Below are positions 1,390 to 60,170 of a DNA stretch of 64,000 nucleotides, piece by piece; the stretch's first letter is position 1; each line of letters begins with the position of its first letter. The notes under the pieces are model-generated. The model saw only the letters and a list, made by a program, of their open reading frames with translations. It was not told the origin of the DNA and ran no database searches. Location of the stretch: the IMG/VR virus record IMGVR_UViG_3300030109_006161, positions 1 through 64,000 of that record. The stretch is one strand, 5' to 3'. The position numbers and the translations under genes are program-made. The stretch comes from a virus.

Positions 1390-2583
1390 TCACATGTCAA
1401 GATTTAGTTTAAAGGTAAAATTATCAATTTCTCTTTTTAGGACAGGGTTAGCTAATTTTGCTATACCTAGAAGATTCTTATGTTCGTCAAAAATACCTAT
1501 TTGGCTTATGAAGGTCTGCTTCTGGAACTCATCATCGTAATTACAGTATTGACTCTGTACTGTGTTTTTGATAGCAATGTCTGTAGGTTCCACATAGCCA
1601 TTTCTGCCAGACGAAACTTTACTTGTCCAGTGAGATGAAGAGTATTCAATCCATGTTGGATTCAAAGAATTATTTGCCTCTCCTGCTTGAACTGTCGCAA
1701 ACATGGTCATAGATGGTATTTTTTGTGTACCCTTAAAGCTGACCGAATACAAACTAGCAGTAGCAGATGTTGGGTTGTTTCCGAACTCAAGCCACGTTGG
1801 CTTTGATAAACTGCCGGCACCAAAGTCATCAAGATCGTCTGAAATGGCGGCGGATGAAGTTAGTAATATAAAACCCTCATTGTAAAGAACGACGCCCACA
1901 GTTGAGCCACTAGTAGAACCAACCACTGATATCAACTCGCCATTCTTTCTTTTGTCAATTGCTTCACCAATTAACGTGCCGGTGTGATAGAATTTTAAAC
2001 TAACAGACCCTTTGTCAATACCATCTGAGAAAAATATTGATGGCACCTGAATCATATTAACTGCGCCTGTAACATAACTGCCTGTATAAGAATAACTGTC
2101 ACTAAGATACTTGTAGTAATTCATTGTGTTTTTTAGAGATATTAATGCTTTCCTTGAATCAGCATATTCGTCTAGTTGCTGCTCATATACAGCTTCGGAT
2201 CCAGGTCCGATACCAAGAGTTGGAAGATCTAGTCCTGTAAAGTAATGACGACCTATAGAAGATGTCATAGGATAGGAACCGTTGATCTGAGTACCAGCAG
2301 CAACTTCGTTATAGGCAGACCCAGTTATCGTTCTAGAGCCCAAATTCATAGTATTATAAAAACCATCTTTGATTATGAATGGTTGAATAAGTGATTGATT
2401 TGTGCCGTCTCGATCTACATTGTATTCGTACAAGCTAACAGTGCCTGTAGGAATGTTTCTACCCAAATCTCTTTCATTGTTTAGGTATGCGGCACCCTTA
2501 TATAAGACAAATTCATATGATGGTTTTGCCACCATACGATTTATCAGTATATCATCGGGACCAAACGAATGAAGGTAGGACAT
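1390..2583 (-). CDS. putative baseplate/tail structural protein
   Basis: 397 aa, S/T/G-rich. C-terminal FISQIGIFDEHKNLLGIAKLANP is shared with the neighbour 2596-3669. Located in the baseplate block. Confidence 0.55.
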   Translation of the reverse strand: MSYLHSFGPDDILINRMVAKPSYEFVLYKGAAYLNNERDLGRNIPTGTVSLYEYNVDRDGTNQSLIQPFIIKDGFYNTMNLGSRTITGSAYNEVAAGTQINGSYPMTSSIGRHYFTGLDLPTLGIGPGSEAVYEQQLDEYADSRKALISLKNTMNYYKYLSDSYSYTGSYVTGAVNMIQVPSIFFSDGIDKGSVSLKFYHTGTLIGEAIDKRKNGELISVVGSTSGSTVGVVLYNEGFILLTSSAAISDDLDDFGAGSLSKPTWLEFGNNPTSATASLYSVSFKGTQKIPSMTMFATVQAGEANNSLNPTWIEYSSSHWTSKVSSGRNGYVEPTDIAIKNTVQSQYCNYDDEFQKQTFISQIGIFDEHKNLLGIAKLANPVLKREIDNFTFKLNLDM

Positions 2584-2595
2584 CCATACCCCCTT

Positions 2596-3669
2596 CTAGT
2601 AATCGTTCCTGACTCTTAGGATCAACTCGCCAGCGGGTGTCTTTTTCAAAGGCTCGCTGAGTTTGGCAACACTTAGCAAAGCGTTGTCTTCACTATAGAG
2701 ACCCACTGTAGTAATGTAAGAGACTGGGTTATCCGCAGACACTTCTTTGACTCTCATTTTGCTAGCACTAAGATATGTGGGGTTGCTACTGAAGTTGAAA
2801 TCACCATTATTTATTCTACAAAAATAAATTGTAGAGTTTAGTTCTGTAGTATTATTAAAGCTGATGTTTTGAATCCTGTGTCTGAACGCATCACATGCGC
2901 CGCTAATACTACTGCTAACCAAAAGATTGAGCGGCTTGAGTCCAGCAGACGTCATTTCACAATCTTCTACAAACGCAGGTTGGAAAACAGACGCAGTTAT
3001 GACTGCAACGCCAGCTTGATAGAATACCAAACCGCAAGGTTTTGGCGAAGCTCCAGGGAACCCAGAACCAGTACCATACAGGATATTGAATTCACCAGCA
3101 GGAGAATTTGTTTTATATGCATTTGGACCATCTTTATCAAAAACAGTTAGAGTTTTTGCAAAAGGATTTGCAAAGGAAGCACTCACGCCAAGAATTGCCG
3201 TGAAACCATCAGCCTGTTTTTGAATCTCATCTTTTGTGAGAAGCCTTGCAAAGTTGATAACAAAAACTTCATTCATGTTGTCAGCAGCAATACCACTTGT
3301 AAAGTTACCGCTGACGTTTAGACGATTGATACTTCCTGTGCTATCGTACCCGGCAAGCATTTGCCCTAGTTCGTTATATATGTCATTTTTCTGATCTCGC
3401 ATACTGATGACAAGTGAACCCGAAAGAAGAGAATCTGTTACCCATCCAGCGGTTAGATCAAAAATGTGGTTAGCCGATGAACTTAGATACGGATAATCAT
3501 AAACAGACTGGAACATACCGTGAGTATAGTTCTTAATGTTGTTCTCGTTTGGGAAAGTACCATAAGTTCCAGATATAATTGTCCCGGTTAGAGGAATTGA
3601 CTCGTGAAGTTTAGTACGAGTGTTCGTAATATCTGTATTTGTATTTAATGTTTTAAAACTAGTCGCCAT
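2596..3669 (-). CDS. putative baseplate/tail structural protein
   Basis: 357 aa. C-terminal YITTVGLYSEDNALLSVAKLSEP is paralogous to 1390-2583. Confidence 0.55.
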   Translation of the reverse strand: MATSFKTLNTNTDITNTRTKLHESIPLTGTIISGTYGTFPNENNIKNYTHGMFQSVYDYPYLSSSANHIFDLTAGWVTDSLLSGSLVISMRDQKNDIYNELGQMLAGYDSTGSINRLNVSGNFTSGIAADNMNEVFVINFARLLTKDEIQKQADGFTAILGVSASFANPFAKTLTVFDKDGPNAYKTNSPAGEFNILYGTGSGFPGASPKPCGLVFYQAGVAVITASVFQPAFVEDCEMTSAGLKPLNLLVSSSISGACDAFRHRIQNISFNNTTELNSTIYFCRINNGDFNFSSNPTYLSASKMRVKEVSADNPVSYITTVGLYSEDNALLSVAKLSEPLKKTPAGELILRVRNDY

Positions 3670-3681
3670 GTTTATATCCTA

Positions 3682-12519: not shown

Positions 12520-15500
12520 TTATTCTTTGTCCGGTTTCATAACATTTCTGGCTATATTTTCAATAGAGGTTTTGATTAACTGTTCGTCAGAGCCACCAGT
12601 CTCTAGTGCTTCTTTATATTCTTTTTCTAAATCTGGTCGGAAGCCAACTTTGCCATCAATCTTAGCTAATTCAATCAAAGAACAGTAATCATAAGGCCAA
12701 TTGAAAGTAGGACTATCCAAAGAATGCTTCTTGATGTAGGTATTCTTAGCAAACTCATCTCTTTCTGCTAAGTTTTTCTCAACTTCTTGCTCTGGTAATC
12801 CCTGAAGAAGCATAAGCTCTTTAGCATTATCATACCCCAAAGCAGCAGGACCATCAATTTCTTCAGCTATAAACTGAGTATAATTAGCTACTCCCCTTTC
12901 TTTGACTCTGAAAACTAGCCATCTTATTTCTGGGACAAACCCGTCAGAACATTTCTTTGCTATATCTAACAAATCATATCTTGGATGCCCATCTTGAGTG
13001 ACTCCTAGCTTTATTTGCTGCTTCAGCACCTCAGGAAACTTAGTGGTAGAAGACCCTACATTATCTCCAGGCATATAGTGGTCGATTGCTGAGAAACTTT
13101 TTGTAAGCCTGTTTGCTATGTCCGGCATTATGTTTTGCCATATATCTGCAAGATCTTGTTTAGATAAAGATACTTTATGCTCCATCAAATAAACCACAGG
13201 AGATTGTAATATATCACTTCCCTTGAGTACTTCATCATACTCATCTGGTCCAAATGGGTTTATCACATTTGGAATTGTCGGGTACCCCTTAGGAACTAAA
13301 CCTAAAAGCTTATAAGCCAAAGACGGTGGTAAAGAATATTTAGTAAAATTCTTTCTAAATTCTTTTATTTTTGGACCCAATTTGCTTGCAGGTGCTTGCA
13401 AGTTTACAAGATTAGGCGCACCGTTGTCATCTAAGTAAAAAGGCAAAGCTAAAATAGCTTCAGAAATAGAATTTTCATTATCGTCAGCTAGTTCCCCCAA
13501 CCTTTTTGCTTTGGCTGGTTCAAACCCTTGGCGAATAATTTCATCCGGGTCAAAGCCGCAAAGATCAGCTAATGATGAAATAGACCTACCAGAGTCTATA
13601 ACAAACTTTGGAACCTTTCTAACATGGTGATACGAACCTGAGAAGTCTGTGAAGGGAACTGGCTTGGTAAATGTCGAAACATAAGATACGGCGATCCTGT
13701 CATATTCCTCATTCTTCCCAGTTGGTATATCCTTTATATACATATAAACACCATCATCAGAAGAAGGCGTAACACCGTACTGGTGCCACATTCCTTGAGT
13801 TCTCTGAGTATAAGAGCCGGGTTCGACAGAAGAAGAGAAATTATAAATATCAGAAGCTGTCCTGTTGGGAAAATCTAAAATAGGACACTCCCACTTAGGC
13901 ATAATAGTCCACTTGTTTGGATCTGTTGATTTATATATCTCACCATCTCCTGTCGGGAATTCATTGTTTATAAACAGAGAGGCATCGACGTCCATTCGAT
14001 TCAACCAAGCTCTATTCCATCCATACCCAGGCGTTGTAGTTGATGCTCTGCTGTTTCCATCAGCATCAACAAATGACCCAGAGGCTATATCGTAATAACT
14101 GCCACTTTCATTTATAAAATCAACAAATACTTCACCTCGATCATTATTGATAATTTCATCCAAGGTATACTCTTTTTTATCTCCAGTCGGTAAAAACGTA
14201 ATACGTGCCAAAGATGGACCATAATAATATGGCGCAGTAAATGGAGCAAACTCGCCTCGGTGTTTAGGCCAGGGTGGGTTATCCGGAACAAAACTACCGC
14301 TAGCTTTAAGTGTGTCCCAAGTATTTATCTCACCATGCGTAAAAGTAGATGGTCCAAAAGCGTGAGGATTACTGTACATATTAAACTGATCTGTTTTCAT
14401 TAGACCAATTTCCATCATGTATGCATTTTTTGGATTAATAGCTACTTTTCTTTCTGGCGATGTAGATGCTTGCGAACCCTTGGGTACGGCACCAAATTGA
14501 GACACAAATTTAGTAAGACTTCCTTCATGTCCGTATTTATTGAATTTCTTTTTCAAAAAGAATTTGGGAACATTTGCTAAGAAATTTGACATTGACTTTT
14601 TATAGAGAGATGTATCCGTCAATGCTGATGGCTCTATTGAAGCGCTTGCAATAACATACTGAAAGTAATCCGTTGAATCAGCAGAAATAATCTCAGAATT
14701 AGATCCAGTTGATAAATAATTTTCAGGTGCCAATATTGATTCAAAAGGCAAACGATCACTATAAAACAAAGCTCGGTTGACAAAACCTCCAACGCTTGAA
14801 GTGTTGAAATTTATATTCTGAAGTCTTCTGGTATTACTAGGAAGTAATCCATTTCCAAAAGAGGTGTCTAGAGTATACAAAGCAGGATAAGGCAATGCTC
14901 GTAAGCCGCCATTGTAAAGTGCAGTTCCCAGTTTTGAATCTTGCTTGTTAGTGAATACATTATAGATACTAGGAAGTACAGTAGACCAAGAGTCAGGGTA
15001 ATCTCTGTCAGCACGACGAATCGGATAATCAACTGCAATACCTGACTTTATTGAATTGTATAAAATACCAGGAGAGAAGAAGGGACGTAAAACAGTTCTT
15101 AAAGCTCGACGGTTTCCGGCATCGGCTCCCGTAAAAATAAAACTATTAGAGTATGATTGAGAAAAATGTGTTGCTATTTGTAAAGTTCTGTTTACAGGAT
15201 AAAAACCCTCATAAGGCAAAAGTTTAATTATAGCATCACTACTGATTTCAAAATGTCTCGGGTACTTGTTAAAAACGTAATTTCTATCTGTCTCATCAAG
15301 GGACATAAAATTATCTAAGAAATCAAAATTATCGGTTGTCGCATAACGATCGTAAAACTCTTCGTTAGTGCTATCAAAAACATTTACACTTGCACCAGTC
15401 AATTCCAGAGAAGAGGAAACAACAGACAAAAATGAGGCATTACTACTGTATTCACTAATGTGTTCGCTTACTCTAAATTCTGGCACAATCGTATAATCTT

Positions 15501-40420: not shown

Positions 40421-40421
40421 A

Positions 40422-45083: not shown

Positions 45084-45385
45084 ATCTTGTGACGACCTCT
45101 TAGTATTTCATAAAACATGATCCAATCACATGCCTTAGCTTTTAGTGTGGTCCACCCGTAGTCCTTTTTACCTTCCCATGCTAGGGGTTTATTTTTTTCA
45201 AAAACACCATGAGCGACCCAAGCAAAAGGATAAACAACCAAAGGAATGAGTGGGAACAAAAACCAGTACCAATTATACACTACTGTAAAAGTAAATGCAA
45301 TTGTAAACAACTGACCTAGGAAATGTAATAGTTTACACTTTGGGTGCTGATGTAATGTTAAATAAAATTCGTAGTATTCTTTCAT
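45077..45385 (-). CDS. DUF962/Mpo1-like small membrane protein
   Basis: FYLTLHQHPKCKLLHFLG, YPFAWVAHGVFEKNKP, hydrophobic core. Confidence 0.75.
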   Translation of the reverse strand: MKEYYEFYLTLHQHPKCKLLHFLGQLFTIAFTFTVVYNWYWFLFPLIPLVVYPFAWVAHGVFEKNKPLAWEGKKDYGWTTLKAKACDWIMFYEILRGRHKIW

Positions 45386-45401
45386 GTGTTATTTCCTTAG
45401 A

Positions 45402-46331: not shown

Positions 46332-46347
46332 TTTTTTCTCCATATCA

Positions 46348-46376
46348 AATATAAATTATAATTTTTGTTTCGTAAA
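46348..46376 (-). promoter_or_regulatory. possible internal sigma70-type promoter
   Basis: TTTACG-N17-TATATT in the only sizeable gap within the sugar cluster. Confidence 0.35.
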
Positions 46377-46379
46377 GAT

Positions 46380-47297: not shown

Positions 47298-47298
47298 T

Positions 47299-48568: not shown

Positions 48569-49539
48569 TTGATTTCCCTCGCTTTGTTTAGAATATTATC
48601 AGCCATATGTTTCCAAGTATAATTTTGGGAGACTAAGTTATAAGCGTTATTTATAATTCTACTTCTTTCACTATCATTCGAAAGATAAAAATCTAGTTTT
48701 TCTTCGAAGTTGCTAAGATCATTTTCAAATGTAACACATGTTTCACCGTCTATGAAGAAGTCGCCATACTGTTCTGGCATATTATTACACAATATCAAAG
48801 TTTTTGAAAGTGCTGCCTCAAAATACCTAGGACCTATATCTAATAGCGGACCAGTTGTTGAAAGCCATATTTTGCACTCATTTATTTTCGTTGCATAATC
48901 CTCAAGTGTATTGATACGATATTCTAAAGTGTTGCTAGAATTCCAGAAAACATTATATTTTTCGTTATTATTGATAATGTTACCAACTCTTTCTCGGAGG
49001 TTGGAAGTTGGTCCTTCAATTTTATTACTACCATCAGCCTCAATACCATGAAGGGCACCTGAAAAACCTATATCATAGATCTTCTCAACTTCACGAGGAT
49101 GGAACAATTTTGGTGTGGCTGTAAAAAACGATCTCTGAGATGGTACGCCAGCTATTTCTCCATATCTTTTATAGTTATGCTCTTGTGATTCTAATAAAAG
49201 ATCTACATTGTTTATTTTACAAAAGTTTAGTTTTTCTTCTAATAAATTCTGGGGTTTGTGGATCAAACAAAAAACAGGGATGTCAGTTTCTGCTAATCCT
49301 TCAATTTTTCCAAATGCCGCTGATACAGGGATAGCAAAATAACCAAGACCAAATACGATTAAATCAATAGGAGCGTCGCCTGCTATATTAAGAAGATCAT
49401 CTATATGTTTAGGTATGCCCTGTACTAACCAGATATTCACATTTTCATTTGTTGCAAGTTCTCGGAGAAGGTCTCCATAATATTGATACATATAATCATC
49501 AGATACTTTATTCTCGGCGTCAACATATATTATATTCAC
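48550..49539 (-). CDS. glycosyltransferase (GT-B, CgeB-like C-terminus)
   Basis: YDIGFSG, YATKINECKI, PRYFEA, YTWKH pattern. Confidence 0.75.
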   Translation of the reverse strand: MNIIYVDAENKVSDDYMYQYYGDLLRELATNENVNIWLVQGIPKHIDDLLNIAGDAPIDLIVFGLGYFAIPVSAAFGKIEGLAETDIPVFCLIHKPQNLLEEKLNFCKINNVDLLLESQEHNYKRYGEIAGVPSQRSFFTATPKLFHPREVEKIYDIGFSGALHGIEADGSNKIEGPTSNLRERVGNIINNNEKYNVFWNSSNTLEYRINTLEDYATKINECKIWLSTTGPLLDIGPRYFEAALSKTLILCNNMPEQYGDFFIDGETCVTFENDLSNFEEKLDFYLSNDSERSRIINNAYNLVSQNYTWKHMADNILNKAREIKCRSNP

Positions 49540-50444
49540 TTAGAGTTATCCTTTACTCCTGGAGCGTAGTCACACAAATGACGTAGAGCGCCTTGACTGT
49601 GATATCCTTCGTCTACAGTTTTTAGATCATGTATGTTGTCCCCATGGTGTATGAGGTAAAACAAACTGTTTACGTCATTATCTCCCCATCTATACTTGTA
49701 AATGCCACCATATTGATTCACAGCGTTGATCCACTGTTTCCATTCAGGCGTTTCAAACATAGAAATCTTAACAACATATGAATCGGCACAAGGATAGAAA
49801 TGAAAGTTTTTATCAGCCTCTGGATCTGATAATAAATTTTTCATAAACTCGGATTTTGGTTCGACATTATAATGCTTCAAATAGCCTTTTACAAACTTCC
49901 AAAGATTGATTCTGGTATCAAAGTTTCCCTGGTGAGGTATTTTCTTTGTTTGATCATATACCTTCAGAGCACCCATCGGTTCGGACTGATTCTTCATAAC
50001 TTCGAATGGATCGTAAGTCATCGGCTTAACAAACATAGACTCATCGTCAACACTCATTGTATAATCATATTTTTCAAATTCAGTATTAGGATAACCATAA
50101 TAATTTGACATAAAGTGACACATGTGTAGATATCCCTTACGAGATATTGGAAATTGTGTCCTTACATACCAAACATCCTGTCGATTATAAAACAACTGAT
50201 CTTCTGGGATGTGTGCTGGTGTTTCGTATGGAATAGATACAAAATTAACATTTTGTGGTGTCTCATTAGCAATCATCTGCCTGAATTCTTCTGAATCATA
50301 GATGTCATCAAAATAGAATACATAGACTGGGTAGTCATGCTTAATATTGTAGTTTTCCCACAAAGCTTTAAGGCTCTGTTGAATACAGGCTTTTCTAGAA
50401 GAAATGTATGTTATACAAGCTTTTAGTTTATTATCATTTTCCAT
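49536..50444 (-). CDS. GT15 (Kre2/Mnt1-like alpha-1,2-mannosyltransferase family) protein
   Basis: YPVYVF, GYLHMCHF, YDY..SVDDES..YDPFEVM, GGIYKYRWGD. Confidence 0.72.
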   Translation of the reverse strand: MENDNKLKACITYISSRKACIQQSLKALWENYNIKHDYPVYVFYFDDIYDSEEFRQMIANETPQNVNFVSIPYETPAHIPEDQLFYNRQDVWYVRTQFPISRKGYLHMCHFMSNYYGYPNTEFEKYDYTMSVDDESMFVKPMTYDPFEVMKNQSEPMGALKVYDQTKKIPHQGNFDTRINLWKFVKGYLKHYNVEPKSEFMKNLLSDPEADKNFHFYPCADSYVVKISMFETPEWKQWINAVNQYGGIYKYRWGDNDVNSLFYLIHHGDNIHDLKTVDEGYHSQGALRHLCDYAPGVKDNSK

Positions 50445-51447
50445 ATCTAACTCCTGCGCTTTTATATATATCTGTTATCAAGTCCAACGAATCAAAAGAG
50501 ATAGAGACATCAAAATCATCAAGCTTGGCGTATAACTCTGGGTGGTTCGGACACGAGCCTTTGTACTTACCATAAGAATTTGATTCTTTCGCCTCTTTCA
50601 ATTGTAATATTATTTTTTCGTATTGCTTTTTTAGGTCTTTATGTTCTTTTAGGAAGTGTACTTTGGTTATTTTATCTAAAGCCTTGCCGCCGAGTTCTAT
50701 GAAGCCATACTCTGTCATAATTGCCATAGAACATTCTATGTTTTTTGGCTCGCAGGCTATGGTAATCTCAACTGTTCCGCCAAAATCTCCAAAGTTCATC
50801 AAAGAATAGACAGTATCTTCTATGGTGGTTGTCTTATGCTTTGTGTTATACAAAGAAGATGAGTCAACTTGAGGCTTTCCAAAAAGATAACATAAGATGT
50901 CTAGGTAATGTATGCCACACTCGTGAAGAGTTCCGCCTCCAAGAAGAGGATTGCCACGCCAGTCGTCAAAATATTCCTGAGGTCTTTGCCATCGCTGAAT
51001 CAGGCTGACTCCTCTAATCTTACCCAACAGACCTGAATCTATCATTTGCTTAACGGCAGAGACGACTGGATTTAATCTTACTTGCAGAACTGAATATGCC
51101 CTCTGGTTATTATCTTTTGCTATCTTCTCTATTCTTCTGGCTAGTTCTGAACTGATACACACGGGTTTTTCTATCAACACGTCGCATTTGTTTTCCAAAC
51201 AGTATTTTGCTTGGTGGAAATGTAGTGAATTTGGAGTAGCAATAACCACAAAATTTATATCTTCATTATCAACCATATCTTTGAAGTCTGTGTACGTGGC
51301 TACATCGTACTTCGATGATAGTTTATTGAGTAAACTTTCATCGATATCACAAAGTGCTTTAAGTTCAAAGTCTTTATTCTTTTCAATCGATTCTAGATGG
51401 CGGACTAATATCTTACCACAGCCGATTATTCCTACTGTATACTTCAT
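50434..51447 (-). CDS. Gfo/Idh/MocA oxidoreductase (WbpB/WlbA-like sugar 3-dehydrogenase)
   Basis: IIGCGKI, IATPNSLH, EKP, WQRPQEYF..WRG..GGTL..GIHYLD. Confidence 0.82.
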   Translation of the reverse strand: MKYTVGIIGCGKILVRHLESIEKNKDFELKALCDIDESLLNKLSSKYDVATYTDFKDMVDNEDINFVVIATPNSLHFHQAKYCLENKCDVLIEKPVCISSELARRIEKIAKDNNQRAYSVLQVRLNPVVSAVKQMIDSGLLGKIRGVSLIQRWQRPQEYFDDWRGNPLLGGGTLHECGIHYLDILCYLFGKPQVDSSSLYNTKHKTTTIEDTVYSLMNFGDFGGTVEITIACEPKNIECSMAIMTEYGFIELGGKALDKITKVHFLKEHKDLKKQYEKIILQLKEAKESNSYGKYKGSCPNHPELYAKLDDFDVSISFDSLDLITDIYKSAGVRYGK

Positions 51448-51452
51448 ATTTT

Positions 51453-52262
51453 CTACTTATAGTTTCCATCACGAATTTTTTTAGCCACGCTTTCTGCAAT
51501 GGGACAATCTCCTGTTATCCCCTTCCTTTTGTATACAGGCTGATTATAAACAACTTCTGGATAGTGTCCTGTTGACGGTCCTCTTAATCCCAATTCAGCA
51601 CGAACTCCTGTCATGTGAATCTTCATTTGCTCTAGTGCCATTAAGCATAGTGGCTCAGCAAGACGGAAATTAAAACCAACATACTCATGGTTGTATTTTC
51701 CAACTTGACCTTGGTCGCATATTGATCGTATTTTTCTTGCATCCAACTTAGAGTTTTTAGGAATGCAGATCATACCGCCTTCAAATGTTGATATATTTTT
51801 TGTCTTGTAAAAAGAGAAAGTACCAACATCAGAAATCATACCAGCATTTCTATTTTTGGAATCAACAGCACCGAAAGACTGTGCTGTATCTTCAATAACA
51901 ACTAGGTTATGTTTTTCTGCTATTTCCATAATTGCATCCATTTCACATACTCTTCCATACAGATGAACTGGTATAATAGCTTTGGTATTAGGAGTTATGG
52001 CAGCTTCAATTTTTTCTGGGTCGATTAAGAGTGTCTTTGGATCTATGTCAACAAATACTGGTTTTGCTCCGGCAATAACTATAGCATTAGATGTTGCTAT
52101 AAAAGTAAGAGGCGTAGTGATTACTTCATCTGTAGGTTCAAAATCCATAGACCACAAAGGGGCAATCAAAGCAGAAGTGCCGTTGTTTACTGCAATACAG
52201 TCCTCAAGATTATATGTATCTTTTACATATTCTTCGAAAATATTTCTAACAATTGCTGGCAT
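51453..52262 (-). CDS. DegT/DnrJ/EryC1/StrS sugar aminotransferase (WbpE-like, shortened)
   Basis: NNGTSAL, TFIATSNAI, IIPVHLYG, IEDTAQSFGA, SFYKTKNI..EGG, GFNFRL. Start 52262 follows GGAG. Confidence 0.88.
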   Translation of the reverse strand: MPAIVRNIFEEYVKDTYNLEDCIAVNNGTSALIAPLWSMDFEPTDEVITTPLTFIATSNAIVIAGAKPVFVDIDPKTLLIDPEKIEAAITPNTKAIIPVHLYGRVCEMDAIMEIAEKHNLVVIEDTAQSFGAVDSKNRNAGMISDVGTFSFYKTKNISTFEGGMICIPKNSKLDARKIRSICDQGQVGKYNHEYVGFNFRLAEPLCLMALEQMKIHMTGVRAELGLRGPSTGHYPEVVYNQPVYKRKGITGDCPIAESVAKKIRDGNYK

Positions 52263-53148
52263 AGACTTTCTCCATGAAAGAATCATACAAAGCTGCTGTA
52301 TCTTTTATATTATAACTGTAATCGGAATAATTTTTAACTTTATTAGAAAAATCCAAAATAGGTGGATTATACAGTTCGACAGGACTATAATCCCAATCGT
52401 TCTCTTTTATAACAATAGCATCGCTACCTGCTATTTCTTTTGTACCTCCAGCACTGGAACAAATGATCTGACATCCTGATGCCAAGGCATCAACTACCAC
52501 ATTAGGACAATGATCTAACCAAGCGAGATGAATGAAGTACTTTGAGGCTTTATAAAGGGAATACAATTGTACTTGAGTTAAGTTTCCGAAGTAAGTTATT
52601 TGAGGATGTTTTACTTTTTCTTCTGGTGGCACAGAACCTGCAACTATTAATAGATCATTATCACCACAATGTTCTAAGAAGTATCTAATGTTTTCGTTCA
52701 ATCTTTTATGAGGTCTCCAAGAGGAAGCGCAGCACCAAATATTATCGTACTTGTTATTGTTCATCTCTTCTGTTTTCACAATTGTTTGTAAATCAGCACC
52801 GTTGTGAATGACTGTAGAGCAAGGATGTTCTCCAAAATATTTCTTTATAAGTGTTTCACAGAAACTTGACTGGTAAATTACACCCTCACACATCTGATAT
52901 GTTCTCAAAATATTCTTGTTGAGTAAGTTGTAATCTTGTGCTGTATTAAAGTAAATGCCATCCAACCTTAGAACTTGAGGGATATTCAATTTTTGACGAG
53001 GTGATTCAATAAAGCATAGAGACATATCAGCCTCGGCTATTGTTGTAAATTCGTGACCCATTTCTACTAACTTTGGTCCAAGTTTGTTTGCAAAAGAGTT
53101 TGGACCGCTCGTACTATTGAGATTTACGTTTTCTAGATGTAACTTCAT
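52246..53148 (-). CDS. glycosyltransferase (GT4-like)
   Basis: VIHNG, HKRL, CPNVVVDALASGCQII..GGTKE. Confidence 0.8.
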   Translation of the reverse strand: MKLHLENVNLNSTSGPNSFANKLGPKLVEMGHEFTTIAEADMSLCFIESPRQKLNIPQVLRLDGIYFNTAQDYNLLNKNILRTYQMCEGVIYQSSFCETLIKKYFGEHPCSTVIHNGADLQTIVKTEEMNNNKYDNIWCCASSWRPHKRLNENIRYFLEHCGDNDLLIVAGSVPPEEKVKHPQITYFGNLTQVQLYSLYKASKYFIHLAWLDHCPNVVVDALASGCQIICSSAGGTKEIAGSDAIVIKENDWDYSPVELYNPPILDFSNKVKNYSDYSYNIKDTAALYDSFMEKVYASNC

Positions 53149-53150: not shown

Positions 53151-54764
53151 CTACAACCTGTCATATTTTTGCTTTTTTCTTATTTCAAGCATGTATTCAT
53201 ATTGTTTTTGTGCCTTTGTTTTATTGACAGCATTTGGATTAGTTACATTATACACATAAGTAACCTCGGGAACAAATTTAGACCTAGAGCCTGCCATTTC
53301 TAACATAGGTAACATCATAACTTGATCGTATGATATTTCGTAAAAGTTTCCTTCTTTATTGATTAGATCTTCTTTTTTTACTTTATCCCACAAAGAAAAT
53401 TTAAAGGTCTTAAGGTGTGATGCCCGCCACTTATCGGATCTAAAATTATTGTTTTCGATTATTTCTTGGGGATATTCACTAGCCTCTTCTCCGATACCTC
53501 CGTCTGGGAATCTAGCAAAACTACCATAAGTCATCAAACAATCAGAGTTTTTGTAATAGTGGTTTAGTTGTGATAATACATTACAATTTGGAAACCAATC
53601 ATCACCGTCTAAAACAACTATTACATCTTCTGGTGAGGGTTTTGACTCTAGGATTGTATCATATATGTTTTTTAATGCATATTTTTTATTAGAGCACTTC
53701 ACAACACTAAACTTGTCGCCGGTTGTAAATCTTTCCGCAACTTGAAATGTATTGTCGGTAGACATATCGTCAGAAACATAACATTCATAATTTTCATACT
53801 TCTGATCTTGAACGCTTTCGATTGTTCTTGAGATCCAGTTTTCAGAATTATAAACAGGAACAATAATCTTAAATCTTGTATCTTCTGGCTCTTGGTGTAT
53901 TTGTGGGACTTTGCTTCCCATATGCTTATATGTTTCACTCCAGAAAATATCCGCCCTGGTCTGGAGGTACTCTAATGCATGTTCTCTTGAGCCAGTAAAC
54001 CAGTCTTCATTTTTGTGTTGTACATTATCATTGAGTATAAGCTCGCAACCAAGTAATTTTGCCTCAATAACTGTTCTCGGACATGTGTCGGAACCCTCTG
54101 GTAGGAAAATAAATCCTTTTGCTTTTGCAAACTTTTTCAACATCGCAGAGTACTCTACCCCTGAGAAGGTTTCATATGGTATTTCTTTCTGTATAGCATA
54201 TTCTACTGCCTTATTTGATCCTTTAACCCATGAGGGAGAGTCTTGAATCAGCCAAACATTATCTTTTTCATTTTGATCCAAAGAGTTTATATATTCAATA
54301 GTTTGATTATTAAATACAGAACTTAGAACACGAGTTGTTGGCTTTTCAAGAAAGGGGAACAAATCGTAATAGATTTGTCTTTGTGCTGCGGACATAAACC
54401 AAAGGTTGTTTGCTTTTGCGAAAAATATTGAAAATAGTTTTCCCCTTTGGCTGTTTTGACAATCACATTTACCCTCGCTAGCTATATGTTTTTCTGGCAA
54501 TCTATAAGAGCAAAACTTATAATCATATTCTATGACTGTATAGTTTAGATTTTTGCACGCATAAAGAATAATATCATTAGGTAACCCAGCACAGTTGCCA
54601 AATATCCAGTATTTATCCTGATGTTCGTCTATAATTTGCTTTGTTACTTTTTGAGAATGAACTGTCAATACAGGTATTTTTGTTGCATCAATAATTGCCT
54701 GAGTTGTTAGCTCACCTCCGCCCACGTAATCTTGGACGAAAAGGTCTTGGACAAAAACTATCAT
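53151..54764 (-). CDS. bifunctional glycosyltransferase (N-terminal GT-B-like plus C-terminal GT2)
   Basis: N-terminal half VGGGE..DTCPRTVIEAKLLGC. C-terminal half IIVPVYN..DDMSTD..LDGDDW. Confidence 0.82.
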   Translation of the reverse strand: MIVFVQDLFVQDYVGGGELTTQAIIDATKIPVLTVHSQKVTKQIIDEHQDKYWIFGNCAGLPNDIILYACKNLNYTVIEYDYKFCSYRLPEKHIASEGKCDCQNSQRGKLFSIFFAKANNLWFMSAAQRQIYYDLFPFLEKPTTRVLSSVFNNQTIEYINSLDQNEKDNVWLIQDSPSWVKGSNKAVEYAIQKEIPYETFSGVEYSAMLKKFAKAKGFIFLPEGSDTCPRTVIEAKLLGCELILNDNVQHKNEDWFTGSREHALEYLQTRADIFWSETYKHMGSKVPQIHQEPEDTRFKIIVPVYNSENWISRTIESVQDQKYENYECYVSDDMSTDNTFQVAERFTTGDKFSVVKCSNKKYALKNIYDTILESKPSPEDVIVVLDGDDWFPNCNVLSQLNHYYKNSDCLMTYGSFARFPDGGIGEEASEYPQEIIENNNFRSDKWRASHLKTFKFSLWDKVKKEDLINKEGNFYEISYDQVMMLPMLEMAGSRSKFVPEVTYVYNVTNPNAVNKTKAQKQYEYMLEIRKKQKYDRL

Positions 54765-54766: not shown

Positions 54767-56038
54767 CTAGCCCTCTTGACTTAGGGATGCAAACATATTA
54801 TTTATCTCTTCGTCGTCTTTTGATGTGTCAATATATGGATCGAAAACATCCAAGTATTTATTACAGATTATATCTTCACTAAAATTATGTTTCAGGTGTT
54901 CCTTTAGACCTTCAGCACGAACATTGCGGTAATTTAGACCGTTATACATTTCTCGGAGTCTTTTTTTGTAACTTTCTTCTTCAGGATAACACCATTGAGC
55001 TTCCTTAGATATGACCCCTTCCCAAACAACTTCGGGTTGAACTGGTCCAATACCAAATTTGATCTTTTCAAATAAAGGTGTATCTTTTACTTTCCCTGAT
55101 TTTTCATTTTTTACTGGCGCATAAAGGAAATCATTTTGTCCCGACCAAGCTGGGGCAATAACAGGAAGTCCAGAATAAGCAGCTTCAAAAATTGGTAAAC
55201 CAAATCCTTCACCATGCGTTGTTGTTACATATGCCTTAATTTTAGGGTGCGTATACAGTCCGTGCATTTCTTCAGCAGTCATATCTCCGTGGATGAAATA
55301 TACTTTACACTTTCTATCTGATCCATACGATGCTAAAGTTAGCTCAATATGTCTTGCTAGTTTTTTTCTATCGATAAGCGACATATTCATCTGATGACTT
55401 TTAATTACCAAGCCAACGTCTTCATTGTGCTTGAACTCATCTACAAACCACTTAATACTAGCTACAATATTTTTTCTTGGACCCCACTGAGCAACAGTAA
55501 GGAAATTAAAATTACTCGAAATATCAATTTTGTCTGACATATCCACTGGCTCTAAATTCTTCACAGGATAACCAATAACTTCTACTGGGGTCTGACATTT
55601 TAGCAAATGAGTAGCACCAGTATTCTGATCTTGTACATGGTATTCAGTTCCTTCAAAAACATTTTTACTATGATTAGAGATAACAACAATTTTATCCATA
55701 AGGTTTGCTTGTTGTAGCCAAACTGGATCGACTCTATCAACTTCAATCCCGGCAGTAACTCCAATATTCACTTGTGCTAATCTTTTCCATTCATTTGGAA
55801 TAGTAACTTGAATAGATAAGTCAAAATGAGGTGGAGGCGAGGACATTTTATCCATGTCTTCTTTGAGATAGGGTCCTATTTTTTCAGGCTGCATGATCCA
55901 CGAACTTTGTCCCCACTCCAAAGGCTGTACACAAACATTAATGGATGAATTTCTTTTAAGTGACTTATAAACAAGTCTTGCATGTTCCCCATATCCACTT
56001 CTGGATAAAATTGGTGCTGTTAGTAATACGTTTTTCAT
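54767..56038 (-). CDS. glycosyltransferase (GT4-like)
   Basis: SGYG, RKN, GEGFGLPIFEAAYSGLPVIA..WSGQ. Confidence 0.85.
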   Translation of the reverse strand: MKNVLLTAPILSRSGYGEHARLVYKSLKRNSSINVCVQPLEWGQSSWIMQPEKIGPYLKEDMDKMSSPPPHFDLSIQVTIPNEWKRLAQVNIGVTAGIEVDRVDPVWLQQANLMDKIVVISNHSKNVFEGTEYHVQDQNTGATHLLKCQTPVEVIGYPVKNLEPVDMSDKIDISSNFNFLTVAQWGPRKNIVASIKWFVDEFKHNEDVGLVIKSHQMNMSLIDRKKLARHIELTLASYGSDRKCKVYFIHGDMTAEEMHGLYTHPKIKAYVTTTHGEGFGLPIFEAAYSGLPVIAPAWSGQNDFLYAPVKNEKSGKVKDTPLFEKIKFGIGPVQPEVVWEGVISKEAQWCYPEEESYKKRLREMYNGLNYRNVRAEGLKEHLKHNFSEDIICNKYLDVFDPYIDTSKDDEEINNMFASLSQEG

Positions 56039-57309
56039 TTTATTTCAATTGTCTCCCAACGGGTATAATTTTTTCGGCTATCCCAAGACCCTAAGCGATG
56101 GTGTAAATCTTGTAGATAATCAACCCAAAACTTTTGATAACTTTCAAATGCGTAGTTTTTCTCAACATGTTGTCGTCCGGCTTTACCTAAATTATCACGT
56201 TCTTCTGGTGTCATTTTGTAAATCTTCTCAAGGGCGTCAGCAACATCTTTTTCACAAGTCCTGTCTTCAAAAATATAAGGAACATGCTGCGAGCCAATAA
56301 TAGCTTTAGAACAAGGCTCAATACCTACTCCAAACCAATTTTCTCCATCAGTTACTTGCTCTTGCAGTCCGCCAGTCATAGTATTGACTACAGGAGTTTC
56401 TGTCGATAAAGATTCCAAAGAACTTAATCCAAAGCCCTCGGCATCAGCAATATTTATAGTGCAGTCTGCCAAATTATACAACAGAGCTAAATCAGGTGCA
56501 GCTAGTTTTTGTCTGGAGAATTTTATCTGCCCCTGGTCGCATCCAACTGTTGCTGCTAGATATTCTAATGGTTGTCCGTGAGGATCGTTTGTGTCTGTAT
56601 GCATAATAAGACATGCTTTATCATGTCCTACTCGATCAAGAAATGCCTTAAACCAATATACTAATGATCCGCTTTGCTTTCGTCGTGCATTGCGATTATT
56701 CCAGAAGAAAATAAATTTATCCTCCAGGTTCATGTTCTTTTTCATTTCAGAAATTTTTGTGAGACTTTCTTTGTCAGTTACTTTCTTGAATATATCTGGG
56801 TCAACTGCGTGTGGTAAGTAAACTTCCTCAGTTGTTGGCGATGCTTTCTGAACGCATTGACTAGTAACTTTAGAAATTGTAACAATAGCATCTGTACTTA
56901 GATAATATGGTGCATTGAATTCTGGAGTGGGAAAGTTATCCCACACATGATAATAAACCATTGGTACAACTTGTCTGATTTCAGATTCCATTTGCCATAA
57001 CCAGTCATAAAATCTAGGATCGGTCATGAACCAGATTAGGTCAGGTTTTTCTGATAGTATGGCGCTTCTTATTTGATTTGGCGTACCATAAGCATCCACG
57101 GGAATAATCTTCCAAGAAGAGCCATATTTTTCTAGTCCATGCTCTATTACACTGTAATCTTTATGTTTGATTGCTCCCGCAAAAGATACAACTTCAAATT
57201 TACCACTCTCTAGTAATGCTTCGATCATATATTTTGTCTGAGTAGCTACACCCGATGGTAATAAGGGGTGGTCGCTTAGTGTAAGGATTTTTATCTTCTT
57301 ATCGGACAT
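56035..57309 (-). CDS. glycosyltransferase (GT4-like)
   Basis: PSGVA, PHAVD, NRNARRK, AEGFGLSSLES..PVV..TGGLQEQ. Probable start 57309. Confidence 0.85.
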   Translation of the reverse strand: MSDKKIKILTLSDHPLLPSGVATQTKYMIEALLESGKFEVVSFAGAIKHKDYSVIEHGLEKYGSSWKIIPVDAYGTPNQIRSAILSEKPDLIWFMTDPRFYDWLWQMESEIRQVVPMVYYHVWDNFPTPEFNAPYYLSTDAIVTISKVTSQCVQKASPTTEEVYLPHAVDPDIFKKVTDKESLTKISEMKKNMNLEDKFIFFWNNRNARRKQSGSLVYWFKAFLDRVGHDKACLIMHTDTNDPHGQPLEYLAATVGCDQGQIKFSRQKLAAPDLALLYNLADCTINIADAEGFGLSSLESLSTETPVVNTMTGGLQEQVTDGENWFGVGIEPCSKAIIGSQHVPYIFEDRTCEKDVADALEKIYKMTPEERDNLGKAGRQHVEKNYAFESYQKFWVDYLQDLHHRLGSWDSRKNYTRWETIEIK

Positions 57310-57320
57310 GTTTGTTTTTC

Positions 57321-58160
57321 CTAATTGCAATATTCTGACCTATAAAATTCACATACACCTGGGCGGTGTTTGCAACTAGTACAGGAGTTTCTATTCTTAA
57401 TATAACGTTCATTTGTGATATTGTATAGAGCAGTTGTCAAAGATTTTAGTGCGTCGGTTGTTCTTTTTTTCGCTGCTGTAACTCTTACAAATTCAACTTT
57501 TTTACCTGGTTTTGCAGTTCTTTTCAAAAGAACAAAATGGCAGTCAAGATCATCTGGGCTTACGTCGTACTTTTGAGAATAAAAATGTTTATACATCACA
57601 AGTTGATAAGCCATTGTTTTATCACTTTTCTTTTCTCGTCGCCAACCCCAAGAACAAGTTTTCCAATCAATCAAGTGAACCTTTTCATCTTTATTTGAAT
57701 GAACTACAAGATCAATAAAGCCCTTAAAGTTTTTCTTTGCATCCTTGAATTCAGTAATAGGCTCATAAAGAAATTCTTCAGCAGCCAATACGTGCCAGTC
57801 CTCGCCAAGCTTTCCAAATTTTTCTACTAGAGAGCGATAAAGGTCGGGAATAATTTCAATACCGTGTGCTAGCCACTCTTGCAAATCAAAATCGTTAGCT
57901 GCTCGTTGTTGTTCTAGTTCTGGCAGTGCTTTTAGTTCTTTTACAAACTGTTGCTTCAGCAGATTGATTATTTTTTCTTGAGACCTATATTGTTCAGTCT
58001 TTGTGAGAGTTTCCTCACATAAGGTATGTAAAGCTTTACCAAAGGCAGTATAAATATTTCCTTCAAACTTATTGATCTTATCGATATAGGTAAGTTTATG
58101 ATAGTGCGGGCAAATAAGCCAATTCTTCCACTCTGAATAAGAGATATGTTTTCCAGCCAA
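57321..58160 (-). CDS. PD-(D/E)xK nuclease, Cas4/RecB-like with Cys cluster
   Basis: SYS..CP, GKALH, GFIDLV..LIDWKT, QLVMY, C-terminal CTSC..C..C. TTG start. Confidence 0.85.
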   Translation of the reverse strand: MAGKHISYSEWKNWLICPHYHKLTYIDKINKFEGNIYTAFGKALHTLCEETLTKTEQYRSQEKIINLLKQQFVKELKALPELEQQRAANDFDLQEWLAHGIEIIPDLYRSLVEKFGKLGEDWHVLAAEEFLYEPITEFKDAKKNFKGFIDLVVHSNKDEKVHLIDWKTCSWGWRREKKSDKTMAYQLVMYKHFYSQKYDVSPDDLDCHFVLLKRTAKPGKKVEFVRVTAAKKRTTDALKSLTTALYNITNERYIKNRNSCTSCKHRPGVCEFYRSEYCN

Positions 58161-58175: not shown

Positions 58176-58835
58176 TTAGTTGTTGACGAGTTCATCAATC
58201 TTGTTATATAGTTCGGGACTAATTTTCTTTAGTTTTTGCTTGCTTCCTAAAAAATACTCTTCGAATCCAGTTCCAAAATATTCACGGAGAGAAACAGATG
58301 CATAAGGTCTTATATACATACCAGATGTAATCATTTTAAGCAAGTTTCCTCCAACCCTTTTGTATAAAAAGACATCAAAATTACGGTCATACTCAAGATT
58401 CATGAAATTATATTCTTTAGTCCAGTATCCTTCAGATCTTAATTCAAATTCTAGCTCCGCTCGTTTTTTGAGGAACTCCTTTTTGATTTTCTCATCTGCG
58501 TATATCTCTTCAGGGTACAGCATTTCTACATGATGTGCGAACTCATGAATTATATCATCGATAATATCAGCGGCATTATCTTGTTTGTTGGTAATATAAA
58601 AGATACCATTATCGTATAATGCATTAGCATCTTTCTTATCAAATATAGGAATATGTTCTATTCGAATTTGATTTAGAGATCTAAAGAACTTTGATGGTAA
58701 TAATTTTTCTACAGAAGATAAAACACTTTGGAGATCTATATTATCCGGACAGGGGTCAACCTCAACAACATCTACCCCAGCAAAATTAAAATACTTGGGC
58801 GTATTGTTTACTCTTTCAAATATATAATCTCTCAT
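58176..58835 (-). CDS. HExxH zinc-metallopeptidase-like protein
   Basis: IIHEFAHHVE plus downstream YASVSLREYFGTGFEEYF (third-ligand Glu). Confidence 0.6.
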   Translation of the reverse strand: MRDYIFERVNNTPKYFNFAGVDVVEVDPCPDNIDLQSVLSSVEKLLPSKFFRSLNQIRIEHIPIFDKKDANALYDNGIFYITNKQDNAADIIDDIIHEFAHHVEMLYPEEIYADEKIKKEFLKKRAELEFELRSEGYWTKEYNFMNLEYDRNFDVFLYKRVGGNLLKMITSGMYIRPYASVSLREYFGTGFEEYFLGSKQKLKKISPELYNKIDELVNN

Positions 58836-60136
58836 AGAATTTCCGAAGCTAAGGTTGCTAATTTAGATCTTTCGCCTTTAACTAGTGTCACATGACCCGC
58901 AATATCATATTGTTTGAATTTTTCAACAGCATGAGTAAGACCGTTTGAAACTGAATCAACATAAGAGTTATCAATTTGTTGGATATCTCCAGTAAGCACT
59001 AATTTAGTTCCATGACCTACCCTTGTTATTATAGTCTTTAATTCGTGGGCTGTTAAGTTCTGAGCTTCGTCTACAATCAAGAAAGCATTGGAAATTGAGC
59101 GACCTCTAATGTATGTCATAGCTTCTATTTCAATGGTTCCTTGTTCTATTTGCATATCTAAAGCACCACGGTCGCCAAACAGTTGTTCTAAGTTGTCTCT
59201 AATAGGGGCAATCCACGGCATCATTTTTTCTTCTAAAGTTCCCGGCAAAAATCCGATATCTCTACCCATGGGTTGAACTGGACGAGTTATAATCAATTTA
59301 TCATATCCACCTTTTGCACTAGTGGTATTCATAACTTGCTCCAAGGCGCAAGCTGTGGCTAATAATGTTTTACCAGTTCCTGCTGGTCCTGTCAAGGAAA
59401 GAACATGTATATCTTTATCGAATAAGAGATCCATTGCATATTGCTGTTCTTTGTTGTTCGCTGATAAACCCCATATGTTTTTGTATTTGTTTATCTTTCG
59501 AAGAGGTTTATCATAGTCCATAAAACGACAGATTGCTGACTTACTTGTACCTTCATTTTTTAATATAAGGTATTGGTTTGGGTAAAGTTTTGTTCCTTGT
59601 TGTGGTAATAATGTTTCTTTACCGGTATAAAATTGATCTATAAGGCTAAACTCTACCTCTACTTCTTGAGTTCCGTCAAATAAATTCTCTATAGAGTTAA
59701 TTACTTTCTCAGGTTGGTAGTCGTAACATTCTATACCGTGGGCGTCGCACTTTACTCTCATATTGAGATCACGAGACACAACAATAACTTCTTTGCCTTC
59801 ATCAATTAATCGGAGAGCAACAGCTATAATTTTATTATCAGCATCATTGTTATCTACCCCAGGAGGCATGTATTTTTCATCAAAATGTGCCGCTATTACT
59901 CTGCCTTTGCCTCTTCCTAAAGGAGCACCGGTAAGTAAACTACCTTTAGAACGAAGTGAGTCTAAAACTCTATTCATAGTTCTAGCGTTTAAGCCAGCAG
60001 TATCCTGCCTGTGTTTATGACGATCAATCTCATCTAAAACTATAGTTGGTATTGCGATATCGTTTTTACCAAAAGCTAATATGGAACCTGCCTCCGTGAG
60101 GTATACATTCGTATCTAAAATGATGGTTTTTTTCAT
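58832..60136 (-). CDS. phoH: PIN-domain PhoH-family ATPase (PhoH2/YlaK architecture)
   Basis: PIN motifs ILDTNV..DNKII..VSRDLNMRVK. Walker A GPAGTGKT, IGFLPG, RGRS, DEAQN, GDIQQID. Confidence 0.93.
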   Translation of the reverse strand: MKKTIILDTNVYLTEAGSILAFGKNDIAIPTIVLDEIDRHKHRQDTAGLNARTMNRVLDSLRSKGSLLTGAPLGRGKGRVIAAHFDEKYMPPGVDNNDADNKIIAVALRLIDEGKEVIVVSRDLNMRVKCDAHGIECYDYQPEKVINSIENLFDGTQEVEVEFSLIDQFYTGKETLLPQQGTKLYPNQYLILKNEGTSKSAICRFMDYDKPLRKINKYKNIWGLSANNKEQQYAMDLLFDKDIHVLSLTGPAGTGKTLLATACALEQVMNTTSAKGGYDKLIITRPVQPMGRDIGFLPGTLEEKMMPWIAPIRDNLEQLFGDRGALDMQIEQGTIEIEAMTYIRGRSISNAFLIVDEAQNLTAHELKTIITRVGHGTKLVLTGDIQQIDNSYVDSVSNGLTHAVEKFKQYDIAGHVTLVKGERSKLATLASEIL

Positions 60137-60163
60137 ATTTTCCCTGAAATAAGTGGGTTTATA

Positions 60164-60170
60164 TAATTAG
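60164..60170 (-). promoter_or_regulatory. candidate phage late promoter CTAATTA heading the phoH-glycosylation operon
   Basis: Between the tmRNA terminator and the phoH start. Same motif as before the structural genes. Confidence 0.45.

Follow-up and report, generated by a model that had tools for sequence, protein, structure and literature searches.

Here, we analyzed the IMG/VR virus record IMGVR_UViG_3300030109_006161 (109,249 bp, 135 open reading frames (ORFs); hereafter G000), the first 64 kb of which constitute the window, and focused on a 22-gene island of glycosyltransferases (GTs) and sugar-modifying enzymes that adjoins a myophage baseplate block. The best reading of this island, to which we give a probability of roughly 45%, is that the phage autonomously glycosylates its own outer tail proteins in the cytoplasm. 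The initial annotation of this DNA had also proposed that the phage decorates its own particle; the lack of export genes, a promoter-like motif shared with structural genes, GT4 enzymes resembling those of chloroviruses and the low likelihood of DNA as the target favor that proposal, whereas the lineage-specific position of the island next to the baseplate and the possible service of host enzymes count against it.

In the proposed mechanism, two soluble, conserved GT4 proteins would act as a heterodimer and lay the first, probably mannose-based, sugar on phage structural proteins, while a phosphomannomutase encoded in the phage core genome would boost the GDP-mannose supply. A variable cassette would provide unusual nucleotide sugars, here GDP-mannose-derived 6-deoxyhexoses as well as amino, N-formyl, C-methyl and O-methyl sugars, and five further cassette transferases would extend the glycan. 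The array would be read from a late-type promoter common to the structural genes. The gene content, the missing export and priming genes, the retention of the GT4 pair, the variability of the cassette, the conserved motif and the lack of enzymes required for DNA modification are observed, whereas the identity of the acceptor, priming by mannose, late timing and pairing of the two GT4 proteins are inferred.

The island and the missing membrane steps

The island (36796-57330, minus strand) lies between PIN-PhoH/nuclease genes and a gp25/gp6-type baseplate block, and its 22 co-oriented ORFs abut or overlap. Nearly all genes of the window are on the minus strand, with almost no intergenic space. 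Searches with Pfam, PHROGs and NCBIfam identified seven GT genes carrying eight GT domains, along with GDP-mannose 4,6-dehydratase (GMD), six short-chain dehydrogenases/reductases (SDRs; two GDP-fucose-synthase-like and four other), a GFO-type 3-dehydrogenase, a formyltransferase, a TylC3-type C-methyltransferase, an FkbM methyltransferase, a truncated NDP-sugar dehydrogenase and two truncated DegT-like genes. The cluster had been annotated as 20 genes at 36796-57309 with about eight GT-like genes; the cluster is real and the GT estimate close, but the gene count was too low. The sugar chemistry proposed at that stage (GDP-mannose-derived 6-deoxy sugars, amino and formamido sugars, C- and O-methylation) fits the Pfam and NCBIfam matches. 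The genes of the island are as follows.

56035-57330, minus strand: GT4 number 1, B736L-like, with an EX7E motif (Pfam)
54767-56038, minus strand: GT4 number 2, predicted partner of number 1 (Pfam)
53151-54764, minus strand: 537-aa two-domain transferase with a GT-B-like N-terminal half (by eye) and a GT2 domain (Pfam, residues 300-430)
52246-53148, minus strand: short GT4 (Pfam; phrog_2170)
51453-52286, minus strand: DegT-type aminotransferase lacking its C-terminal third (277 aa), LegC/PseC-like (Pfam 1.2e-74, profile positions 29-235 of 360)
50434-51447, minus strand: GFO/IDH/MocA sugar 3-dehydrogenase-like protein (Pfam, NCBIfam)
49536-50444, minus strand: GT15, Kre2/Mnt1-like alpha-1,2-mannosyltransferase family (Pfam 2.8e-19; PDB 1s4n, E 1.1e-9)
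48550-49539, minus strand: Glyco_trans_1_2 transferase (Pfam)
47975-48568, minus strand: 197-aa short DegT-like protein with an internal gap (Pfam)
47299-47994, minus strand: formyltransferase, probably a sugar N-formyltransferase (Pfam, NCBIfam)
within 44136-47330, minus strand: three SDRs, the one at 46380-47330 GDP-fucose-synthase-like (Pfam, NCBIfam)
45077-45385, minus strand: Mpo1/DUF962 membrane protein, 102 aa (Pfam; hydropathy scan)
42962-44161, minus strand: NDP-hexose C-methyltransferase, TylC3-type (profile searches)
42156-42965, minus strand: unknown 269-aa protein, no PDB relative in a profile search
41249-42205, minus strand: FkbM methyltransferase (profile searches)
40422-41249, minus strand: 275-aa transferase, matched in PHROGs only (phrog_2644, E 2.9e-9)
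39551-40447, minus strand: NDP-sugar dehydrogenase lacking its C-terminal domain (NCBIfam)
38623-39558, minus strand: GDP-fucose-synthase-like SDR (NCBIfam)
37764-38630, minus strand: SDR (profile searches)
36796-37767, minus strand: GMD (E 1e-128)

The GDP-fucose-synthase-like match reaches 266 bits, under the equivalog cut-off. For the 537-aa protein, PDB matches of the N-terminus to designed armadillo repeats were dismissed as compositional (50 residues, no domain-level match). The GT15 family is best known from the fungal Golgi; the gene found here lacks a membrane anchor and is 88-92% identical in the related loci L003 and L014.

Compared with surface-polysaccharide loci of the Wzx/Wzy or ABC type, the island combines nucleotide-sugar genes and several GTs in one operon, and the priming and export steps are missing. 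The initiating phosphoglycosyl transferase Bac_transf (PF02397) was not found on G000, and a hydropathy scan of its 135 ORFs revealed at most two hydrophobic segments per protein, hence no polytopic membrane protein of the flippase, polymerase, ABC permease or ligase type. The only protein with two segments is the 102-aa DUF962 protein, correctly singled out in the initial annotation as the sole membrane protein of the cluster. A seroconversion system of the gtrABC type (GtrA flippase, membrane GtrB, GtrC) is likewise absent, there being no multi-pass protein on G000, and the GT2 domain matches a GtrB-like PHROG over its soluble catalytic part only. All seven GT genes are devoid of membrane spans and thus represent phage-encoded soluble GTs.

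G000, which has a G+C content of 38.7% and no terminal repeat, is only 53% complete according to CheckV, so the absence of export genes covers about half of that genome. This gap is closed by a complete relative, G001 (190.5 kb, 1.6-kb terminal repeat, CheckV 100%): neither G001 nor another relative, G002, encodes a protein with more than three hydrophobic segments, and all 253 island ORFs examined in 48 relatives have fewer than two. The earlier claim that there is no Wzx/Wzy/ABC exporter and no priming transferase thus held both on the 109-kb contig and, beyond it, in the complete G001. The cluster is not self-sufficient for lipid-carrier export, here and in the complete relative.

A conserved GT4 pair and a variable cassette

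Related loci were gathered with the PIN-PhoH protein as the query (51 IMG/VR loci); the M23 hub protein of the baseplate recovered no relatives when used as the query, and megablast yielded no DNA-level match of the island to cultured phages. More than 40 relatives retain the gene order PhoH, peptidase-like protein, nuclease, GT4, GT4. The genes flanking the island are the following.

58832-60136, minus strand: PIN-PhoH ATPase, first gene of the co-oriented array (Pfam PhoH 1.8e-51, PIN_4 3.9e-24)
58176-58835, minus strand: conserved 219-aa protein with a weak M90-like metallopeptidase C-terminus (Pfam, below the cut-off), kept in 47 loci
57321-58160, minus strand: PD-(D/E)XK (Cas4-like) nuclease, conserved left neighbor of the GT pair (Pfam 1.5e-17)
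35074-36809, minus strand: five small conserved ORFs (a 64-aa flank gene, a Zn-ribbon protein and others) at the baseplate-side border, kept in relatives

The 64-aa ORF (36615-36809, minus strand) overlaps the end of the GMD gene and fills an apparent 180-bp gap; it is 53-88% identical in relatives and serves as an edge marker.

GT4 number 1 has 34 orthologues at 53-77% identity, and the orthologues of GT4 number 2 show 33-64% identity. Gene content beyond the pair is variable among the phages: clustering of the 253 island ORFs at 50% identity gave 133 groups, and the 537-aa GT2 protein is semi-conserved (24 loci). In the minimal relatives (L008, L009, L013 and L033), only one ORF, of 220 aa, stands between the GT4 pair and the small ORFs, so that the pair and this ORF abut the baseplate module, and G001 and G002 carry 17-18 kb of mostly unrelated sugar genes at the same site, although the GMD orthologue of G001 (75% identity) sits at the same island edge. 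A GT2-GT4-GFO-GT15-GT1_2 segment is shared with L003 and L014, though it is absent from closer PhoH relatives. We conclude from this variation that the island is a recombining cassette at a fixed site, with the conserved GT4 pair as the anchor.

The Pfam families tallied across the islands of the relatives include SDRs, GT2, PseB-type dehydratases, DegT, NeuB, radical-SAM/B12 enzymes, methyltransferases and MptE-like (Maf-type) proteins. The last family (PF01973) occurs in 14 of 41 relatives' records, with none in this window; the G001 gene adjoins NeuB, a CMP-sugar synthetase, GT10 and split transketolase halves. Judging from these genes, the G001 island is a different rare-sugar chemistry at the same site.

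More tentatively than the general reading, we suggest that one of the most abundant uncultured myovirus lineages in the ocean may coat its outer baseplate and fibers with a strain-specific glycan. A GT4 heterodimer fed by the phosphomannomutase would prime Ser/Thr residues of tail proteins, and the recombining 0-20 kb cassette, as the phage counterpart of a bacterial O-antigen locus, would write a 'virion serotype'.

Beyond the uncultured lineage, a tblastn search of 50,697 phage records with GT4 number 1 as the query matched only Flavobacterium phage vB_FspM_immuto (Immutovirus), Microcystis phage Mel-JY01, an uncultured 484-kb phage and Rhodothermus phage RM378. The GT4-GT4 unit is common to Immutovirus, Mel-JY01 and RM378. 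GT4 number 2 has an orthologue in Immutovirus (30% identity, E 7e-60) and, over its N-terminal half, in RM378, and the nuclease has one in Immutovirus (27% identity, E 2e-25). Immutovirus and Mel-JY01 also share the order of the PD-(D/E)XK nuclease followed by two GTs and a variable sugar set. The nuclease order is known for these two only; in RM378, the pair stands alone among replication genes, with no extra sugar genes adjacent, and the gene upstream is annotated as 'similar to DNA polymerase I'. The retention of the pair and the nuclease in more than 40 relatives, and of the pair in phages infecting Flavobacterium, Microcystis and Rhodothermus, points to an acceptor that is intrinsic to the phage or universal, rather than to the surface glycan of one host.

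This distribution bears on the principal alternative, host envelope remodeling, which we consider unlikely, if the strongest of the competing explanations. In such a scheme, the phage nucleotide sugars and GTs would act on host undecaprenyl-phosphate intermediates, and the host priming transferase, flippase or ABC exporter and ligase would display the glycan, with benefits such as a superinfection block or keeping progeny off debris. The gene families (GMD, Pse/Leg-type, DegT, formyltransferase, GT2, GT4) are those of O-antigen and capsule synthesis, the cassette is hypervariable like a serotype locus, and remodeling is how comparable clusters in cyanophages P-SSM2, S-SCSM1 and S-SCSM2R are usually interpreted (PMC12801897). 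However, the anchoring GT pair is kept across phages of three host phyla with different envelopes, a carrier-linked or membrane step occurs in none of about 50 relatives, the RM378 pair has no sugar genes next to it, and the motif at the head of the array, which is common to structural genes, would leave little time before lysis.

The cassette could also be a largely decaying mosaic, that is, horizontally acquired, partly non-functional cargo in which only the GT4 pair matters. Two DegT genes and the NDP-sugar dehydrogenase gene are truncated, and the 277-aa DegT fragment interrupts a gene order found without it in L003 and L014, where its two neighbors lie side by side. Yet across 20 kb the reading frames are intact, closely coupled and free of internal stops, several relatives keep the short DegT-like form, and complete relatives retain cassettes of 17-18 kb, which makes wholesale decay highly improbable.

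The preferred reading, glycosylation of the phage's own tail proteins, draws on what the GT4 pair resembles. In PDB profile searches, chlorovirus NY-2A B736L (3oy2) was the top match for both proteins, over the full length of GT4 number 1 (E 2.8e-15) and with E 6.9e-7 for number 2. The AlphaFold model of GT4 number 1 (pLDDT 88) likewise retrieved 3oy2 first in Foldseek (E 6.9e-18, TM 0.69/0.75); its best viral models were a 484-aa sequence, the length of the RM378 glycosyltransferase, and M1I9Z9. B736L is a GDP-Man-binding GT4 (PMC9614988), and all four genomes searched, G000 included (76461-77126, minus strand, outside the window), encode a eukaryote-type phosphomannomutase (PF03332, 153.7 bits), whereas a sugar-1-phosphate nucleotidyltransferase (PF00483) is absent from all four. 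By analogy with B736L, and given the core phosphomannomutase, a mannose-based conserved core is plausible.

The predicted complex of the two GT4 proteins scored 0.85 against 0.00 for the best control, a mark reached by 58 of 80 solved complexes and by 2 of 110 mismatched pairs; contact agreement between runs was at least 97% and partner pLDDT at least 89. This prediction supports the binding of the two proteins as a heterodimer. The modeled interface includes a strand formed by the conserved C-terminal tail of GT4 number 1 (residues 424-431), which packs onto residues 245-253 of number 2.

Another explanation is a different cytoplasmic acceptor: the glycan, or the product of the conserved GT4 enzymes alone, would be built on a small molecule, a glycolipid or a protein of phage or host that is not part of the virion, with possible roles as a compatible solute, decoy or anti-defense agent; we regard this as improbable, slightly more so than host remodeling. 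Further structural neighbors of GT4 number 1 include MshA, BshA, sucrose-phosphate synthase, trehalose synthases and PimB', weak sub-threshold matches to GT4-conflict were found, and the single membrane protein of the island resembles Mpo1, whose family has been linked to lipid oxidation. Against this explanation, a 20-gene pathway with seven transferases points to an oligosaccharide rather than a simple glycoside, and the tripeptide enrichment in outer tail proteins described below has no place in it.

Candidate acceptors, transcription and the DNA alternative

The cluster is, as initially described, upstream of and co-oriented with a myophage baseplate block, which comprises gp25, a gp6-like wedge and an M23 hub.

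33870-35072, minus strand: M23 hub protein, inner baseplate (profile search)
26260-26664, minus strand: gp25, inner baseplate
24445-26241, minus strand: gp6-like wedge, inner baseplate
24445-35072, minus strand: inner baseplate as a whole, including 379-aa and 2027-aa proteins (profile searches)
1390-24443, minus strand: outer baseplate and fiber proteins, about 23 kb of large genes

For most of the fiber proteins, PHROGs and Pfam gave no match. We counted [ST][GA]S tripeptides in each protein against 300 shuffles, and five outer tail proteins contain them 3-7 times more often than the shuffled sequences.

22926-24443, minus strand: candidate acceptor, 10 tripeptides versus 1.4 in shuffles
19204-22929, minus strand: candidate acceptor, 9 versus 2.9
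12520-19173, minus strand: candidate acceptor, 15 versus 5.6
2596-3669, minus strand: candidate acceptor, 6 versus 1.0
1390-2583, minus strand: candidate acceptor, 4 versus 1.0

The wedge, the hub and the 2027-aa inner protein are not enriched, and a single non-structural protein reaches z = 3. Orthologues of four of the five candidates are enriched in G001 and G002 as well (for example, 46 versus 10.4, z = 12.5), with no listed orthologue for 12520-19173. The enrichment is suggestive of the outer tail proteins as acceptors.

The PhoH gene at the head of the array is preceded by a 594-bp gap that holds a transfer-messenger RNA (tmRNA) with a strong terminator and then a promoter-like motif.

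60163-60171, minus strand: promoter-like motif ACTAATTAT, which comes directly after the tmRNA terminator and precedes the PIN-PhoH start by 34 nt

Most of 39 distinct relatives carry a motif of the ACTANTTA type at the corresponding position before PhoH, while the sequences flanking it diverge. In G000, the pattern [AT]CTANTTA occurs 5-60 nt before 15 starts; nine of these sites fall in the tail block, and the island itself has none. ACTANTTA lies 10-60 nt before capsid-region, tube, wedge and fiber genes in G001 and G002, and the motif is strand-biased in G001 (52 versus 12 sites). An early-type leader, GTAAGGGAG, is confined to 74-95 kb of G000. The motif may mark late transcription. A sigma-70 promoter scan of the island gave no more hits than shuffled sequences (78 versus 81), and a terminator scan found no convincing terminator at the ends of the island. 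The tmRNA (60218-60540, minus strand) matches the full-length Rfam model RF00023 with 88.6 bits; ARAGORN overlooked it, and its tag frame seems to end in two stop codons. Most relatives retain its 3' end and the terminator immediately before PhoH.

Several observations weigh against the glycosylation of virion proteins by the phage alone. The absence of export genes from the phage does not exclude host enzymes, which could serve for priming and export, and the gene content and hypervariability of the island look like those of O-antigen or capsule loci. Three of its genes are shortened (51453-52286 and 47975-48568, both DegT-like, and 39551-40447, the NDP-sugar dehydrogenase). B736L is also a generic HHpred match for DNA glucosyltransferases (PMC6024577), so that likeness to it does not name the acceptor here; the fold neighbors MshA, BshA, PimB and sucrose-phosphate synthase act on small molecules or lipids; and the predicted complex may have scored well because it resembles GT-B pairs that have been solved. 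Enrichment, though smaller, also holds for the reversed tripeptide S[GA][ST], so part of the [ST][GA]S signal is local Ser/Gly richness, and a composition scan found no mucin-like Ser/Thr-rich tracts. The late timing is deduced from the motif. The initial annotation had pointed out that the head of the operon carries the same motif as structural genes; the motif is indeed conserved and shared with them, but it also precedes yeaH and a few other non-structural genes.

Finally, in Immutovirus, Mel-JY01 and RM378, the GT module lies away from the baseplate and structural genes, and its adjacency to the baseplate is thus specific to the present lineage. The wedge protein of G000 is matched over its full length in Immutovirus and Mel-JY01 (32% identity), and the uncultured 484-kb phage is also among the full-length wedge matches (30.5%).

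A different target altogether would be DNA, with the GTs glycosylating a modified base, as in T4, RB69 or the MT/TET types, and the neighboring nuclease clearing unmodified host DNA. The nuclease-GT-GT order is deeply conserved, the pair stands among replication genes in Mel-JY01 and RM378, and phage GTs adding mono- to trisaccharides to DNA are known (bioRxiv 10.1101/2023.12.21.572611; PMC13326640). The known routes start from a ThyA homologue, yielding 5hmC, 5hmU or 5hoC (PMC13326640), or from a C5-methylase with a TET-type dioxygenase (bioRxiv 10.1101/2023.12.21.572611). However, searches of five genomes, of which three are at least 92% complete and the most complete reaches 100%, retrieved no ThyA homologue (PF00303), no C5-methylase (PF00145) and no TGT/DpdA; Tet_JBP (PF12851) gave no match in these five either, in a search that is weak as its control was also silent. 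Moreover, the virion DNA of Immutovirus 2-6A, which carries an orthologous GT module, yielded only dA, dC, dT and fdPreQ1 by LC-UV-MS/MS (bioRxiv 10.1101/2023.04.13.536721), that is, no glycosylated nucleoside. With the modification enzymes missing and the Immutovirus nucleosides canonical apart from fdPreQ1, we place DNA glycosylation among the least probable explanations. The island formyltransferase was also considered as a DpdN (fdPreQ1) enzyme and rejected: the lineage lacks DpdA, and no Immutovirus match was among the matches listed (best 20 of 53 phage records).

Related systems and further observations

The closest parallel is with chloroviruses PBCV-1 and NY-2A, which encode the same GDP-mannose-derived 6-deoxy pathway (GMD A118R, GDP-fucose synthase, GTs A064R and A546L/B736L, methyltransferase A061L). 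The island shares with them GMD, the 6-deoxyhexose pathway, soluble GTs, sugar methyltransferases and the absence of carrier and export genes, and its GT4 pair is nearest to B736L (PMC9614988). Unlike the algal viruses, the present virus is a bacteriophage, identity to B736L is only about 19-20%, and the GT4 proteins are a predicted heterodimer followed by a swappable cassette. In mycobacteriophages Che8 and Rita, cytoplasmic phage GTs are likewise proposed to O-glycosylate the phage's own structural proteins as a shield; these systems reportedly comprise 2-4 GTs, have no nucleotide-sugar pathway and target the C-termini of capsid and tail-tube subunits (Freeman et al. 2023, cited in PMC11256854 and PMC12619734). 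In contrast, the present island has 22 genes, shows no sequence relation to them, and its likely targets are outer baseplate and fiber proteins.

The cyanomyoviruses P-SSM2, S-SCSM1 and S-SCSM2R are, likewise, marine myoviruses with many GTs and NDP-sugar epimerases, but their clusters, which contain Kds and PgaA-type genes, are interpreted as modifying the host surface (PMC12801897), whereas the cassette described here is hypervariable, occupies a fixed site by the baseplate and is anchored by the conserved GT4 pair. The PF01973 genes of the relatives recall the Maf flagellin nonulosonic-acid transferases, which transfer CMP-activated sugars to Ser/Thr of a structural protein in the cytoplasm; we count their presence in favor of protein glycosylation, although, at about 290-350 aa, they reach only about half the length of bacterial Maf and thus do not share its acceptor domain.

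To our knowledge, virion glycosylation by phage enzymes has been shown only in a few actinobacteriophages, and otherwise in giant viruses of eukaryotes. What appears to be new here is the hypervariable cassette, the conserved GT4 pair that anchors it, the nuclease-GT4-GT4 order across phages and the core phosphomannomutase; together, these would combine the virion-glycosylation logic of chloroviruses and mycobacteriophages with a cassette that is exchanged in the manner of an O-antigen locus, in a myovirus lineage that is abundant in the sea. If this reading is correct, the surface chemistry of marine particles would vary between strains, with consequences for adsorption, stickiness, resistance to proteases and grazers, and recognition by host defenses or lectins, and the LPS-like clusters of marine phages would call for a different interpretation. 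The GT4 pair offers a simple marker, as the family of GT4 number 1 spans more than 7300 metagenome protein clusters, many from Tara samples, and Immutovirus on Flavobacterium sp. LMO8 provides a culturable model for direct testing.

In GTDB, the GT4 family is found only on contigs of metagenome-assembled genomes (MAGs) with inconsistent labels, and these occurrences are therefore best explained as binned phage DNA. The MAG contigs of the phage lineage (L088-L098) are labeled Pelagibacter (twice, one contig being 116 kb), Maricaulis, Flavobacteriales, Woesearchaeota, WOR-3 and others; they are probably mis-binned, so the host labels are unreliable. The GTDB homologues of GT4 number 1, all on phage-like MAG contigs, gave neither an acceptor clue nor a reliable host.

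A tail sheath is present in a complete relative. At L060 5611-6724 (G001 125611-126727), split transketolase-like halves, a B12/radical-SAM enzyme and a NUDIX protein lie near NeuB, the CMP-sugar synthetase and the Maf-like gene. In the window, a RuvC-like resolvase (phrog_159; 731-1378, minus strand) directly follows the fiber genes.

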